Assembly: GCA_965213625.1 (NCBI GenBank)
Contig: CBDBZU010000004.1
Coordinates: 576,001 to 640,000, forward strand
DNA length: 64,000 bases
Direction of reading: 5' to 3'
DNA from: a bacterium
GTDB lineage: Bacteria; UBA8248
Shown: positions 5,521 to 36,457 of the stretch, piece by piece
Numbering within the stretch: the first letter of the stretch is position 1
Layout of the letters: each line of letters opens with the position of its first letter
Position numbers and translations under genes: made by a program
Notes under the pieces: model-generated
Databases searched by the model: none
The model's input: the letters and a program-made list of their open reading frames with translations, nothing else
Told to the model about the DNA's origin: nothing

Positions 5521-5539
5521 AAAAACACCCGGCTTCTTC

Positions 5540-5630
5540 GGCCCGCTTCCCTTCGCTGGAATTACCCAGTGCAGGTTCCAAGGGTTGCCCGCGACTCCAG
5601 GCTCTCAGCACATACACCCCTAGCAGGAAC
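5540..5630 (-). promoter_or_regulatory. TPP riboswitch
   Basis: Minus strand reads CTAGGGGTG...GCTGAGAG...CCCTTGGAACCTG...GGTAATTCCAGCGAAGGGAAG, upstream of thiS. Confidence 0.93.
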
Positions 5631-5790
5631 TATCTCCCAAGAGCATATACGGATGCGCCCCGACTTGCAACGCCCGAAGGGAACCGGCGTGTGCAATTCC
5701 CCCCGTTTTCGGGTATGAATACGAAAAATCACAAAATACGGCCGGGGTCCACCGAACCTCGTGCCTACCCATCGACCGAGGAGCGTGCCC

Positions 5791-26867: not shown

Positions 26868-27896
26868 TCAAGCGGAAAAGTGCTCCCAAGCCAAGTTTTC
26901 CAGAATGAAAATCCCGTCTGCGCGCTTGAGAGAAATCCCCTCCGAGTCCGGAAGAATTTCCCCGATGGGGGTGAGTGGTCCCCCTCCAGAACTTCGAACG
27001 ACTTCTTGAAGAGCGCAAACGGATTTAGCGGGCGTTGTGACGAGAAGCTCGTAATCTTCACCGCCATGCAGCGCCCACTCGCTGGGCTTTTTCTCGGCGA
27101 CCGAGGCTACTTCGAGCAGGGCGCCGGAAACGGGTAGTTCGGATTCCCAAATAATAGCACCTACCCCGCTCGATTCACATAGGTGACGAATATCGCCCGC
27201 CAGACCATCGCTGATATCCATCATCGCGGTGGCAAGCCCCGATTCCGCGATGGCTGCCCCCTCCGCCACGCGAGGCTGCGGCTCGAATTGCGCGCGGGTG
27301 AGCGAGGGACGTACCCCTTCGGGTAGTTTTATGTGCTGCCTGGAAGACAAAAATAACCCCGCGGCGGCATCACCCAAACGCCCCGTCACCAGAATCCTAT
27401 CTCCCACGTGAGCACTGCTTCTACGGAGCACCTTCTCTTCCATAATCTCGCCGACGAGAAACACGTCGACGAACAATGGGCCACTTGTCCGGGTGACGTT
27501 TCCGCCCAGAATCAATATTTTGTATTGCTCCGAGAGAGCGCGAACCCCGCCATACACATCATCCAGAAAAGAAACCGCCGTCTCCTCGGGAATGCCCAAC
27601 GAGATGAGTGCAAAGCGTGGCTTTCCTCCCATGGCCGCCACATCGCTCACATTCACAGCCAGCGACTTGTAACCCACGGCGAATCCCGAAACATCCCCCG
27701 TGGACGGGAAATGCACGCCACCTACCTGCGCATCACACGTCACAACCCAACATTTTCCATCCGCCGCCTTGATGACGGCCGCATCATCTCCGTTGCCTAC
27801 GATGACGTCTGTATCGTTCCCCACCGATCCGAGTACGTCTCTTAGACGCTCTATCAGGGCGAATTCGCCGATCTCACCAGCCGACTTGCCACTCAT
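26868..27896 (-). CDS. thiL: thiamine-monophosphate kinase
   Basis: GEFALI, GDDAA, NVSDVAAMG, DISDGL and GGEDYELL motifs. Confidence 0.95.
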   Translation of the reverse strand: MSGKSAGEIGEFALIERLRDVLGSVGNDTDVIVGNGDDAAVIKAADGKCWVVTCDAQVGGVHFPSTGDVSGFAVGYKSLAVNVSDVAAMGGKPRFALISLGIPEETAVSFLDDVYGGVRALSEQYKILILGGNVTRTSGPLFVDVFLVGEIMEEKVLRRSSAHVGDRILVTGRLGDAAAGLFLSSRQHIKLPEGVRPSLTRAQFEPQPRVAEGAAIAESGLATAMMDISDGLAGDIRHLCESSGVGAIIWESELPVSGALLEVASVAEKKPSEWALHGGEDYELLVTTPAKSVCALQEVVRSSGGGPLTPIGEILPDSEGISLKRADGIFILENLAWEHFSA

Positions 27897-28537
27897 CCTT
27901 TCGCCCTCTCAATACGATTGCACAATTCCCTTGTCGCGGCTTCCGGGTTCGGTGCCCCCATAACCGCGCCGATTACAGCTACGCCGGTGGCGCCGGCTTC
28001 GATGACGGGCTCCACGTTCTCGATACCGATTCCTCCGATGGCGACGGCGGGCAAACCAGGGGCGTGTTCGATAATCCGCCGAAATCCTTCCGGCCCAATC
28101 GGCTCTCTCGCATCGGCCTTGTTGCCAGTCGCGTAGATGGGACCTACGCCGATATAATCTGCATCCTCAGCGGCGGCTCGCGACGCCCATTCGGATTTTC
28201 CGGCTGTTACGCCGTAAAACAACGTATCTCCGCCTATCGCCCTAGCCCTCGGGAGTGGGAAATCCTCCTGTCCCAGATGCACCCCCTCCGCGCCACACGC
28301 CATGGCGACGTCCAACCGATCATTCACCGTCAAAGCACAGCCGGTTCCCTCCAGAGCATCTCGCAATTCATCAGCCAAGCGAATCATCTCCACACCACTC
28401 ATATTTTTTTCGCGAAGCTGGACCATGCCGGCCCCACTCATCGCGGCTGCCCGAACCGCGTCCCTCAGCTTCCATCCGGAAGCCTTCGCCAGAACCTTGC
28501 GGTCGGTAATGACAACCAGCGATGGGTCGAATTTCAT
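27893..28537 (-). CDS. thiE: thiamine-phosphate synthase
   Basis: QLREK, NDR, GVHLGQED, GPIYAT.K and AIGGI motifs. Confidence 0.9.
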   Translation of the reverse strand: MKFDPSLVVITDRKVLAKASGWKLRDAVRAAAMSGAGMVQLREKNMSGVEMIRLADELRDALEGTGCALTVNDRLDVAMACGAEGVHLGQEDFPLPRARAIGGDTLFYGVTAGKSEWASRAAAEDADYIGVGPIYATGNKADAREPIGPEGFRRIIEHAPGLPAVAIGGIGIENVEPVIEAGATGVAVIGAVMGAPNPEAATRELCNRIERAKG

Positions 28538-28726
28538 GGCGTCCCTCAAACAGACAAGAGCAAAACTACCACGTTGATAATGAAACACGACTACCATGAT
28601 AAGCAAGACAAGCCATGTTGAAGAATACATTTATCAATGAGAGGAGAAAAAATAATGAGGGATGTATCTCTTGCGTATTTCTTTCATGCTTGAGAATCTC
28701 TTCTCCTATCTTAAAAGGAGAGCATC

Positions 28727-29326
28727 ATGAGTTGGATCCAACCCATTTCTCCGGATGCCGCGGAGGGAGAAACAAAAGAAATAATCGAAGGCCTGCGCAA
28801 AGCGAGAAAACCCATTCCCAAAATGTTTCTGGAGATGGGCAGAAGACCAGGCATTCTGGCCGGGCGTGAAATGCTCCGCAGTTCCGTTCATGGCGGCTCG
28901 AGCCTCGGAACGAGGCGGGCTGAGTTGCTTGCCTTCTACGTGGCAGCACATGGGGGGTGATACGGCTGAGCGATGAACCACGGGCAGTTGTTCCGTGACA
29001 AATGCGATGGCGCCACAACCGTTGAAGTAGCCGAGGTGCTGGACGACCCGAAGCGCGCAGGTATCCTCGACCCCGCGGACCGCGCCATGCTCGCCTATGC
29101 GGAGAAAATCACCCATACGCCCCACCAAATGGAAAAAACGGATATCGAGCATTTGAGGCGCGTCGGTTTCAGCGAGGAAAACATCGTTGACATCATATCG
29201 GCTGCGGCCTACAGAAACTTCGCCAACACAATCAACTACGCCTTCGGGCACGTGGAGCAAAATCCCGAAGGACCCGAGGAGTTGAATGCCGCCATCCAGA
29301 GGTTGAAAAAGAGAATTCGTGTCTAA
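28727..29326 (+). CDS. AhpD/CMD-family peroxidase-related selenoprotein with UxxU motif (199 aa)
   Basis: ORFs 28727-28960 and 28973-29326 are in one frame, joined by GGG TGA TAC GGC TGA GCG ATG AAC CAC (G-U-Y-G-U-A-M-N-H) at the position of the AhpD CxxC...H motif. Confidence 0.82.
28979..28997 (+). promoter_or_regulatory. putative bacterial SECIS hairpin
   Basis: CACGGGC-AGTT-G(T)TCCGTG; the apical loop is 16 nt after UGA2 and 25 nt after UGA1, with a G in the loop and a bulged U. Confidence 0.65.
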
Positions 29327-30062
29327 TAAATCACTAGCCTTGTCATCAATCTCGTATGTGGGCCTGTTCATATCGGGCGCTTGCGCGCTGGCCGCGGCGG
29401 CATCGGGACTGGGCTATCGCTGGGGATTTTGGCATTTCAGCGCCGGGTTTCAGATTTTCAAGTCCGCATCCGTTATCGCTCTGATCTCAGTCGCCGTATC
29501 CATGGCAGGTGGGCTATTTGCCCTGCGCGACGCCTCGAGATTGAGAACCGTCTGCGCCGCTCTCGGCATCGCGCTGGGTTTTACCGTAGCAGGATTTCTG
29601 TATTCGCACATGCAAATTGCGAGACGGGTGCCCAAGATTCACGACATCACCACGGACACCCGAAACCCTCCCGCTTTTCAAACCGTTCTTCCACTCAGAA
29701 AAGGAGCGAAAAACCCTCCTGGGTATGAGGGTGTGCGCATTGCGCGGCTCCAGATAAAAGCGTATCCAGACATCAAGCCAGTCATATTCCGGGATTCAAA
29801 AGAGGAAGTTTTCAAGCGCACCCTGGACGCCGCACGCGCTATGGATTGGCATGTGGTGTCATCAAAACCGACCGCAGGACGCATCGAGGCCTATGACTCG
29901 ACTTTCTGGTACGGCTTCATCGACGACATCGTTATACGGATCACGTCGAGTAACGGATCGACGCGCCTCGATATCCGCTCGAAATCCCGCGTCGGCGTCG
30001 GCGACATCGGTGCGAATGCCAGACGAATTCGCGGATTTTTCGAAAAGCTGAAAGTGAGATAG
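29319..30062 (+). CDS. DUF1499 domain membrane protein
   Basis: Three TM helices, IHDITTD, YPDIKP, GFIDD and DIRSKSRVG.GDIGANARRI motifs. Confidence 0.85.
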   Translation: MSNKSLALSSISYVGLFISGACALAAAASGLGYRWGFWHFSAGFQIFKSASVIALISVAVSMAGGLFALRDASRLRTVCAALGIALGFTVAGFLYSHMQIARRVPKIHDITTDTRNPPAFQTVLPLRKGAKNPPGYEGVRIARLQIKAYPDIKPVIFRDSKEEVFKRTLDAARAMDWHVVSSKPTAGRIEAYDSTFWYGFIDDIVIRITSSNGSTRLDIRSKSRVGVGDIGANARRIRGFFEKLKVR

Positions 30063-35173: not shown

Positions 35174-36457
35174 TTGTTCGACATTCGCCTCATCAGAAAC
35201 GACCCCGAAGCGGTGGCGCGCGCGCTCGCGCGAAGGGGCGGCGATTGGGACCTCTCGGGCTTACTGGAAATCGACGCCCGCAGGCGGGATTTGACCCACC
35301 AGGTCGAGAGCCGGGTGGCCGACGTGAGGAAGCGCAGCAAGCGAATCGGCGAACTCAAGCGCAACAAGGCGTCCGATGAGGAGGTGCAGGCGTTTCTGGC
35401 CGAGAACCAGCGCTTGACGGCCGAGGCGAAATCCATGGAGGGCGAACTGAGGGAACTCGAGCAAAAACAAAACGATGCGCTCCTCGAACTCCCCAACGCG
35501 CCTCATGAAACCACCCCCGAGGGCCAGTCTGCCGAGGAGAACGCCCTCGTGCGGGTCTGGGGCGAGAAGCCGGCGTTTGACTTTGAACCCAAAGCGCACG
35601 ACGAGCTGGGTGAAGCCTTAGGGATTCTCGACATGAAGCGCGCCGCCAAGATAGCGGGCGCGCGGTTTGCGCTCTACCGGGGCGCGGGCGCGCAGATGGA
35701 GCGCGCCCTCATCAACTTCATGCTCGATCTGCACACGAACGAGCACGGCTACACCGAGTGGCTCCCGCCCTTCATGGTGAACCCCGAGGCCATGACGGGC
35801 ACGGGCCAGCTGCCCAAGTTCGAGGAAGACCTCTTCCGCGTAAACGACGGAAAATACTACCTTATCCCCACCGCCGAGGTGCCCGTCACGAACATCCACC
35901 GGGAGGAAATCCTGGATGGCGGGGACTTGCCCCTGAAGTACACGGCCTATACCCCCTGCTTCAGGAGCGAGGCCGGTTCCTACGGCCAGGACACGCGCGG
36001 CCTCATCCGCCAGCACCAGTTCAACAAGGTGGAGCTCGTCAAGTTCAGCCGCCCCGAGACGAGCTACGAGGAACTCGAGAGCTTAACCTTGGACGCCGAG
36101 AAAGTGTTGAAACTACTTGGGTTGCACTACCGCGTCGTCACGCTGTGCGCGGGAGATCTGGGCTTTTCCGCCACCAAGACGTACGACATCGAGGTCTGGG
36201 TGCCGTCCCAGAACACCTACCGGGAGATATCCTCGTGCAGCAATTTCGAGGATTTCCAGGCGCGCCGCGCGGGCATCCGCTACCGGCCCGGTGCGGGGGA
36301 TAAACCACTGTTCTTACACACGTTAAACGGCTCTGGTCTCGCGGTGGGGCGCACGCTCGTGGCGATTCTGGAGAACTGCCAGCGCGCGGACGGAAGCGTT
36401 GCGATTCCCGAAGCCTTGCGTCCCTACATGGGCGGAGCGGCCTCTATTCCGGCCTGA
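35174..36457 (+). CDS. serS: serine--tRNA ligase
   Basis: [32 protein letters not shown] and TLNGSGLA motifs. Confidence 0.98.

Follow-up and report, generated by a model that had tools for sequence, protein, structure and literature searches.

The 64,000-nucleotide stretch of bacterial DNA analyzed here (contig CBDBZU010000004.1, GTDB lineage UBA8248; hereafter the window) contains, at 28727-29326, two short open reading frames (ORFs) that share one frame and are separated by a pair of TGA codons. The question raised by this locus is whether it encodes two small products, a decaying gene, or a single protein in which both UGA codons are read as selenocysteine (Sec, U) and, in the last case, how two UGA codons 9 nucleotides (nt) apart could be served in a bacterium. 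Regarding the evidence as a whole, the locus is probably (with a probability of roughly 0.8) one gene for an AhpD-like protein of 199 residues in which both UGAs are recoded as Sec, likely by means of the hairpin at 28979-28997, the product cycling between a di-selenol and a diselenide.

One reading frame broken by two TGA codons

The elements of the gene that are needed for the following sections are located in the window as follows.

28715..28720, + strand: Shine-Dalgarno-like AAGGAG, 6 nt 5' of the start codon, read from the sequence
28727..29326, + strand: full coding sequence of the predicted AhpD-like (TIGR01926) selenoprotein, 199 codons plus TAA, with the putative Sec at codons 78 and 81
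28958..28960, + strand: UGA-1, codon 78, first Cys position of CxxC, putatively derived Sec codon, the sister and paralogue clades having TGC/TGT instead
28967..28969, + strand: UGA-2, codon 81, second Cys position of CxxC, putatively ancestral Sec codon common to the CxxU paralogues

From the ATG at 28727 to the TAA at 29324-29326 there is one frame of 199 codons on the forward strand, interrupted only by the two TGAs at codons 78 and 81, with TAC GGC in between. A first-pass annotation of this DNA had described two same-frame ORFs split by TGA-TAC-GGC-TGA at 28958-28969, and the sequence reads exactly so. It had also deduced a read-through product of 199 residues with the segment U-YG-U-AMNH; translation with TGA as U agrees with it and gives ...ELLAFYVAAHGG-U-YG-U-AMNHGQLFR..., the residues around the motif being ...AAHGG-U-YG-U-AMNHGQLFR....

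When ORFs are called with genetic code table 11, the gene is divided into two pieces of 77 residues (28727-28960) and 117 residues (28973-29326). In a public collection of 5.8 billion proteins it is present only as the C-terminal ORF of 117/118 residues, called 'hypothetical protein' where it is named, and an N-terminal piece of 82 residues is found in a representative protein library. The gene is mis-annotated in all the public protein sets searched, which illustrates how double-UGA genes escape current pipelines.

On the opposite strand, an antisense frame of 221 codons is open at 28706-29371 (-), and it is open too in many orthologous loci. Most simply, it results from the GC-rich codon usage of the conserved gene on the other strand.

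The TGA codons occupy the redox cysteine positions of AhpD-like proteins

For family profile scoring of the read-through product, Sec was written as Cys. The product reached 92.2 bits with the NCBIfam family TIGR01926 ('peroxidase-related enzyme', curated cut-off 81.8), in an alignment of residues 2-178 with profile positions 1-176 of 178 that runs uninterrupted across both TGAs. The score with the Pfam family CMD (PF02627) was just above the threshold (24.6 bits, threshold 23). Moreover, five solved AhpD-like chains match by sequence, with E values from 4e-14 to 4e-9. The best of them is PDB 6k40 (E = 4e-14, residues 57-181), whose C-V-Y-C-A-V-S-H sits on U-Y-G-U-A-M-N-H. By this family assignment, an all-alpha AhpD fold is predicted.

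A homologue search among 1.84 billion representative proteins gave 1270 matches at E up to 0.001, and the Cys columns were counted in 99 of the 149 best representatives, those with a length of 165-260 residues (the other 50 were dropped for length). The column of UGA-1 is Cys in 80/99 and that of UGA-2 in 83/99, whereas the column of His85 is His in 95/99; the three residues occur jointly in 69/99. In the window the family motif CxxCxxxH is written U78-Y-G-U81-A-M-N-H85, and it is complete only if UGA is taken as a Cys analogue. Considering the Cys columns of the homologues and the alignment with 6k40, both stops fall on the two redox Cys of CxxCxxxH. The first-pass annotation had placed an AhpD/CMD CxxC-x3-H motif at the TGA positions and had proposed an alignment of homologues, which indeed presents Cys at each of the two columns in most sequences. 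Loci L068-L102 are uninformative in this respect, being members of a subfamily that lacks CxxC.

Conservation of both TGA codons in three genera

Orthologues were searched with a six-frame protein search in 51 genomes of the phylum. The search found 24 orthologues with identities to the query from 87% down to 52%, and all of them present TGA at both columns. They are distributed among 19 of the 23 genomes of the window's genus (g1), four of the five of genus g2 and the only one of genus g3. The motif is GG-U-Y-G-U-A-[M/V/I]-N-H in 24/24, and neither TAA nor TAG was found at either motif site in any of the 24; the true terminator varies among 20 rows (TAA in 16, TGA in 4). The first-pass annotation had considered a chance hit of two nonsense mutations unlikely, and this judgement is borne out, although it is the conservation in 24/24 that excludes chance and not the single sequence.

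Furthermore, the protein is under purifying selection on both sides of the TGAs. Within g1, the ratio of nonsynonymous to synonymous substitution rates (dN/dS) is 0.13 upstream (171 pairs) and 0.18 downstream (170 pairs), with dS of 0.5-0.7. The Y-G codons between the TGAs vary synonymously only, with TAT in one and GGT in one of 20 distinct UxxU rows of alignment A1. Among 22 distinct UxxU sequences, four have GTC, GTA, ATT or ATA in place of the would-be restart ATG at 28973, and yet the downstream protein is conserved.

Concerning the quality of the sequence, the stretch 28600-29070 is also represented in a contig of a related strain from a second study (run X5); it shows 38 differences, but both TGAs are intact. 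Since this independent contig keeps both codons amid so many differences, the TGAs are not sequencing errors; the assembly errors contemplated in the first-pass annotation are likewise contradicted by the 23 other genome assemblies. A contig of depth 57 is identical to the window sequence and may be the window's own source. A degenerate DNA pattern run against metagenome contigs gave 12 matches, 8 of them same-clade orthologues and 4 due to chance. They were not counted for TGA retention because the pattern itself required both TGAs.

No UxxU was found among the 140 TIGR01926 matches in samples of two other phyla (401 genomes each): one phylum gave 45 matches, 15 of them with one TGA, and the other gave 95, all without stops.

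One genome of the window's genus, G010, lacks the UxxU gene and carries two fragment copies (G010:C4:127142-127390 and G010:C5:835962-836210), both stop-free and 75% identical to residues 115-197. These fragments may be remnants or duplicated pieces.

Selenocysteine machinery and genetic code of the genome

The window's genome (4.15 Mb, 96.6% complete) encodes the whole Sec machinery, as the first-pass annotation had required for its proposal. In a profile search, selA (564 bits) and selB (388 bits) were found adjacent and without internal stops, and selD (333 bits) carries itself one in-frame TGA. There is a single tRNA-Sec (75.9 bits, anticodon UCA), which was confirmed by ARAGORN. All four, selA, selB, selC and selD, are above their curated cut-offs. 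ARAGORN detected 46 tRNAs, including that tRNA-Sec (UCA), one tRNA-Cys of 75 nt (GCA) and one tRNA-Trp (CCA). None of these 46 is a second selC-like gene that might act as tRNA-ReC. Of the ten sub-threshold RF01852 matches, the seven strongest were examined and proved to be tRNAs for Leu, Ser and Tyr. TGA is the commonest terminator in this genome, ending 1433 of 3044 open frames of at least 300 codons.

As regards possibly related lineages, a 2026 database paper places metagenome-assembled genomes labelled Nitrospinota/Nitrospinaceae among the richest bacterial selenoproteomes, with 48-54 genes.

The family score, the Cys columns, the machinery and the conservation agree, then, with the first reading of this locus as one hidden AhpD-like gene with both motif Cys encoded by UGA.

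Origin of the two putative Sec codons

The gene is most closely related to its sister, found in a fourth genus, and to a paralogue that most of the same genomes also carry and that is 48% identical in the window's genome. Their motif is GG-C-Y-G-U-T-[M/V/L/I]-N-H. In the 26 sequences of this CxxU clade the first site is always TGC or TGT (26/26), and at the second site the 50 sequences that make up the UxxU and CxxU clades have TGA without exception. Locus L127, the CxxU paralogue of genome G022, was left out of the tree and of the counts, as its motif was not found on extraction.

A maximum-likelihood tree was built from 57 rows. It unites all 28 UxxU rows in one clade, with a support of 99 in the Shimodaira-Hasegawa-like approximate likelihood-ratio test (SH-aLRT), and the motif state needs a single change. 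This clade is nested among CxxU genes, the sister, the paralogues and the outgroups being all CxxU. Since there is a single UxxU clade with CxxU relatives and outgroups, the second Sec would be ancestral, in agreement with the CxxU form published for the family, and the first one derived once. Judging from the aligned codons, the first Sec codon is thus the result of one TGY-to-TGA change in the common ancestor of the three genera.

The genome of the window (G000) has seven members of the AhpD-like family, namely one UxxU, four CxxU (with one TGA each) and two CxxC. Such a set of AhpD-type paralogues is unusually large. The CxxU paralogue clade comprises L044 and 25 more loci, and the genome's own copy is located at G000:C4:2409920-2410492.

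A candidate SECIS element for both UGA codons

A candidate for the selenocysteine insertion sequence (SECIS) lies inside the coding sequence downstream of the motif. The structures discussed in this section are the following.

28979..28997, + strand: hairpin B, SECIS candidate, stem CACGGGC/G.UCCGUG with a bulged U and an AGUU loop
28961..28996, + strand: stretch of low synonymous variation, codons +1 to +12 after UGA-1, including UGA-2, the spacer and the hairpin
28961..28968, + strand: 5' strand of pairing A, an alternative long-range structure that pairs with 28985-28997 and competes with hairpin B for the 3' strand

A hairpin with a bulged U and an AGUU loop had already been recognized at 28979-28997 in the first-pass annotation, and folding confirmed it, with 7 pairs and -7.6 kcal/mol (8 of 200 dinucleotide shuffles are equally stable). 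Hairpin B starts at a distance of 18 nt from UGA-1 and 9 nt from UGA-2, its loop at 25 and 16 nt respectively, and the codon of the motif His85 forms its first three bases. [quoted passage not shown] On every count given there, hairpin B agrees with the model for both UGAs (spacings of 25 and 16 nt).

The variation of the gene points to the same place. Among the 19 same-genus orthologues, synonymous diversity is 0.068 in 28961-28996 versus 0.281 in the rest of the gene, and 6 of 141 sliding windows are as low (permutation p ~1e-4). Two minor codons are fixed in this stretch. One is TTG (12% of Leu), which supplies with its G a base of the pair closing the tetraloop; the other is CGT (13% of Arg), whose U is paired with the A of the His codon. 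Of 22 distinct UxxU sequences, 21-22 keep the pairing at the pair columns of hairpin B, whose two upper pairs are specific to UxxU genes (22/22 and 21/22, versus 1/15 and 0/15 in CxxU). The loops of the UxxU rows are AGUU (14), GGUC (5) and GUC (1), and the upper part of the hairpin occurs as C-G closing AGUU, as C-G or U-G closing GGUC, and as A-U plus G-C closing GUC. The loops GUU and GGUC recur after UGA in three other selenoprotein genes of the genome. In five single-Sec genes of this genome the spacing from UGA to loop is 17-24 nt, and the distances of 25 and 16 nt from the two UGAs of the present gene are roughly centred on this range.

The CxxU clade presents a different hairpin, hairpin C, formed by columns 31-36 with 43-48, with the loop CGUGCU and -6.7 kcal/mol. 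It starts 18 nt after UGA-2, that is, 9 nt farther downstream than hairpin B, and shows one compensatory change from G-C to A-U through a synonymous AGC-to-AGU substitution. In the UxxU clade this hairpin is degraded, since columns 31-48 are paired in 0/22 and columns 35-44 in 12/22 sequences. Hence, hairpin B is the most likely SECIS of the UxxU genes, and it would have shifted upstream by as much as separates the two UGAs, which brings both within reach. It could even be that the gain of the additional Sec was coupled to this re-positioning, with the loss of hairpin C and the rise of a new tetraloop hairpin 9 nt upstream, and that the fixed diselenide provides a redox function (a very low-potential couple) which a selenenylsulfide cannot provide; this proposal is tentative and rather doubtful. 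If it were true, the gene and the Prx-like gene described below would constitute a natural experiment on the reach of SelB from one SECIS.

Several observations weigh against the reading of the locus as a double-Sec gene served by hairpin B. The spacing of UGA-2 (16 nt) is the published minimum and is 1 nt under the genome's own range of 17-24 nt. The 66-nt region is no more stable than its shuffles (z = +1.13), synonymous recodings are as stable in 402 of 5000 cases for the window and in 922-2080 of 5000 for other orthologues, and 48 of 200 shuffles of the hairpin of locus L104 fold equally well. Stability was not used as evidence because shuffles and synonymous recodings are equally stable. 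None of the seven pairs of the stem of hairpin B is changed on both sides (0/7), and the conservation of the stem is partly a protein constraint because it encodes the conserved H-G...F-R. Pairing A is the RNAalifold consensus, with only -6.17 kcal/mol and 97.1% of cells paired; two of its pairs are changed on both sides (U-A in L104, and U-A in four sequences of genus g22), and its covariation statistics are slightly better than those of hairpin B. No Rfam family was matched, either in the whole window at gathering thresholds or in 28900-29100 at E up to 10, which says little because bacterial SECIS elements are poorly covered by Rfam. Concerning the gene itself, the 24 orthologues are related to one another, coming from three genera, and do not count as independent trials, and the two RNA runs cover its flanks only (28600-28651 and 29423-29500), so that they give no evidence either way. 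As to the single shared SECIS of the first-pass annotation, its fit to the published model holds for both UGAs, but the sharing itself is only plausible, since synonymous recodings are as stable and an alternative pairing exists.

A Prx-like candidate gene with a switching second UGA codon

The raw genome was scanned for paired in-frame TGAs, which gave 653 mostly non-coding matches, and a codon-usage filter then singled out a Prx-like gene and a multi-copy element. The Prx-like gene, with the motif W-U-P-Y-U, is located outside the window at G000:C4:678117-678638 on the reverse strand (L145:504-1025, also L146) and is a second UxxU candidate of this genome. It belongs to the AhpC/TSA family (PF00578, 66.8 bits). 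Its orthologues across the phylum present two TGAs or one and, if there is only one, the second site is TGC or TGT; the state switches within one genus.

The hairpin of this gene, UUCUCCC-GGGC-GGGAGAA, has its loop 34 and 25 nt after the first and second sites. It is unchanged across four genera in both the UxxU and the UxxC states, except that the loop is GGGU in two UxxC orthologues; the hairpin is absent from three UxxC orthologues of greater distance, which belong to genera g20 and g21. A UGA 9 nt from an existing Sec codon therefore comes and goes over an unchanged SECIS, as a shared element predicts, and this constitutes a precedent within the lineage. The Prx-like gene also widens the range of UGA-to-loop distances in the lineage to at least 17-34 nt.

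A Prx-like paralogue with one TGA is found ~165 nt upstream (C4:678804-679295). Another double-TGA arrangement occurs in at least 8 places on G000:C4, where ORFs of ~130 and ~318 codons in the same frame are separated by TGA, five codons and TGA (...HPLA*GQPKE*TMTA...). This multi-copy element looks like the gene junction of an insertion sequence and not like a selenoprotein.

Proposed mechanism and alternative explanations

In the mechanism that is proposed, the SelA/SelB/SelD/tRNA-Sec system would decode both UGAs as Sec, with SelB-GTP-Sec-tRNA binding hairpin B twice in succession while the ribosome moves three codons. Sec would accordingly be expected at each UGA rather than any other residue. 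The product would cycle between a di-selenol and a predicted intramolecular diselenide. By analogy with AhpD, U81 would attack the substrate and U78 would resolve the intermediate, with His85 taking part in a proton relay; in M. tuberculosis AhpD the second Cys is the nucleophile. The enzyme could have a role in reducing peroxides or disulfides as putative substrates. Moreover, Sec at the newer site seems to be selected and not merely tolerated, because its TGA is kept in 24/24 whereas the corresponding Prx-like site flips freely.

Both UGAs could also be decoded as Sec without one hairpin acting in one conformation, either with UGA-1 served by hairpin B and UGA-2 by a remnant of hairpin C, or with a switch between pairing A and hairpin B as the ribosome moves. 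Hairpin C is the better SECIS candidate in the CxxU clade, where it begins 18 nt after UGA-2 and has a compensatory change, and hairpin B begins 18 nt after UGA-1, as if the element had been displaced by exactly the 9-nt spacing of the UGAs; pairing A, in turn, is the consensus fold and contains the two doubly changed pairs. Nevertheless, hairpin C is degraded in precisely the genes that would need its remnant, pairing A has no small apical loop containing G and a weak consensus energy, and in the Prx-like gene one unchanged hairpin accompanies one or two UGAs. These decoding schemes are thus considered unlikely. It is quite improbable that the full-length protein is made with one UGA, likeliest the newer UGA-1, read as Cys by a tRNA-ReC (selC*), or as Trp or Cys by near-cognate read-through. 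According to a 2026 survey (PMC13582414), genes of the tRNA-ReC type occur in ~56% of genomes with UxxU hydrogenases versus ~2.3% of other Sec-type genomes, and the same survey warns that with tRNA-ReC one or both UGAs might be read as Cys. Such a tRNA could have been missed in a genome that is 96.6% complete. However, the genome has one tRNA-Sec (UCA) and one ordinary tRNA-Cys, the RF01852 matches examined below threshold are Leu, Ser or Tyr tRNAs, and Cys inserted with low efficiency at UGA-1 should lead to frequent reversion to TGC or TGT, as in the Prx-like gene, and yet TGA is found in 24/24.

The division of the gene by table 11 and the mere pieces held in public collections would fit a decaying pseudogene or two separate products of 77 and 117 residues. 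This explanation is very improbable, and is in practice excluded by the conserved TGAs, the selection on both sides, the synonymous-only Y-G codons and the lost restart codon: the frame and the 9-nt spacing are the same in 24/24, TAA and TAG are absent from both sites, the restart codon is not a start in 4/22, and two separate products would leave the AhpD domain severed within its active-site motif. Errors of sequencing or assembly, or a TGA read as sense throughout the genome, are hardly credible, as the X5 contig and the 23 other assemblies keep the TGAs, TGA is the commonest terminator, the tRNA-Trp has the anticodon CCA, and selA and selB are stop-free. The decoding of both UGAs as Sec in one AhpD-like protein, with hairpin B as the likely SECIS, is therefore maintained as the preferred explanation.

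Genomic neighbourhood

Downstream of the selenoprotein gene there is one further feature that overlaps it.

29319..30062, + strand: DUF1499 membrane-protein gene (PF07386, 84.7 bits), whose GTG start codon lies inside the selenoprotein gene, with an overlap of 8 nt at the end of the latter

This arrangement is kept in 19/19 same-genus loci, and the DUF1499 gene is a probable operon partner of the selenoprotein gene. It lies farther downstream in genus g3 and is not within the flanks of the g2 loci. In the window it is followed by a molybdopterin-dependent (xanthine-dehydrogenase-type) subunit, and the downstream genes in g2 encode a TauE/SafE exporter and a seryl-tRNA synthetase. Upstream, on the opposite strand, are ThiE (27893-28630) and then ThiL (26868-27896). 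Among the neighbouring genes in the window and in the second genus, no gene for a reductant partner is evident beside the selenoprotein gene.

The seryl-tRNA synthetase gene of the second genus (L143:7576-8859) lies ~1.3 kb downstream of the UxxU gene, and the window contains, 6 kb downstream, an ORF (35174-36457) with the same length and TTG start that is probably a seryl-tRNA synthetase too. This enzyme charges tRNA-Sec with serine. The proximity is probably a coincidence. A thiamine pyrophosphate (TPP) riboswitch (RF00059, 57.8 bits) was also detected in the window at 5531-5631 (-), on the same strand as ThiL and ThiE.

Comparison with known systems

Among the selenoproteins predicted in marine microbes, those of the AhpD-like type belong to the most abundant, the published lists giving them one Sec (CxxU). 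In the 2022 and 2026 reviews, the selenoproteins called TIGR01926, CMD-like, 'AhpD-related' and 'distant AhpD homolog' are all CxxU with one Sec. The gene of the window resembles these CxxU proteins (TIGR01926 / COG2128) in the family, the Sec at the second position, the His four residues on and the intragenic hairpin; it differs from them in that the first Cys is also replaced by Sec, and in that its SECIS candidate is placed 9 nt farther upstream than that of the nearest CxxU paralogues. No AhpD-type protein with UxxU came up in searches of the full-text literature, paper supplements and BSepDB being outside their scope. The BSepDB pipeline reportedly handles proteins with at least 2 Sec, and this database may already contain the gene.

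The matched chain 6k40 is presumably DR1765. According to a review (PMC8945050), both Cys of DR1765 are needed for full complementation of hydrogen peroxide sensitivity. Enzymes of the 6k40 type have CxxCxxxH in the same place, with sulfur at both positions where the window's gene would have selenium. The reductant partners of AhpD-type enzymes are lipoamide systems, of which no counterpart was identified next to the selenoprotein gene.

The motif itself has precedents in other folds. The eukaryotic SelL has a thioredoxin-like fold and its SECIS lies in the 3' untranslated region, where the distance to the UGA is not limiting. Its redox motif is reportedly UxxU with a diselenide (said to come from Shchedrina et al. 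2007). The protein of the window is like SelL in the replacement of CxxC by UxxU and in the diselenide expected in the oxidized state, but it belongs to the CMD/AhpD superfamily and not to the thioredoxin-like proteins, and there is no homology between them. By analogy, the AhpD-like UxxU protein may work like SelL, as a diselenide redox couple, though it is no member of that family.

In bacteria, the reviews describe UxxU in Prx-like oxidoreductases (UxxC/UxxU), in the MerA-like metal-binding protein NF041115 and in an FmdB-family protein, and 16 UxxU Group 4 [NiFeSe] hydrogenases were published in September 2026, whose authors propose one SECIS for both UGAs (PMC13582414). The genes of these proteins have in common with the present one a 9-nt spacing of the two UGAs and a single evident hairpin after them, but the fold is thioredoxin-like or the site a metal site, whereas an all-alpha AhpD/CMD protein is predicted here from the family. 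The first-pass annotation had regarded UxxU as very rare and of the SelL type; the motif occurs in several bacterial families as well, and what stands is its novelty for the AhpD fold. Hence, the UxxU motif is new for this fold and not new for bacteria. If the proposed decoding is true, the gene would provide the first diselenide candidate in an all-alpha AhpD fold, fixed across three genera. Regarding the Prx-like UxxU gene, there the first Sec is constant and the second one switches with Cys, whereas here the second one is ancestral and both are fixed. All this bears on whether a bacterial SECIS, being bound by distance, can serve two UGAs 9 nt apart, and the nearest CxxU paralogue, with its differently placed hairpin, together with the Prx-like UxxC/UxxU gene, offers built-in controls for the sharing of one SECIS.

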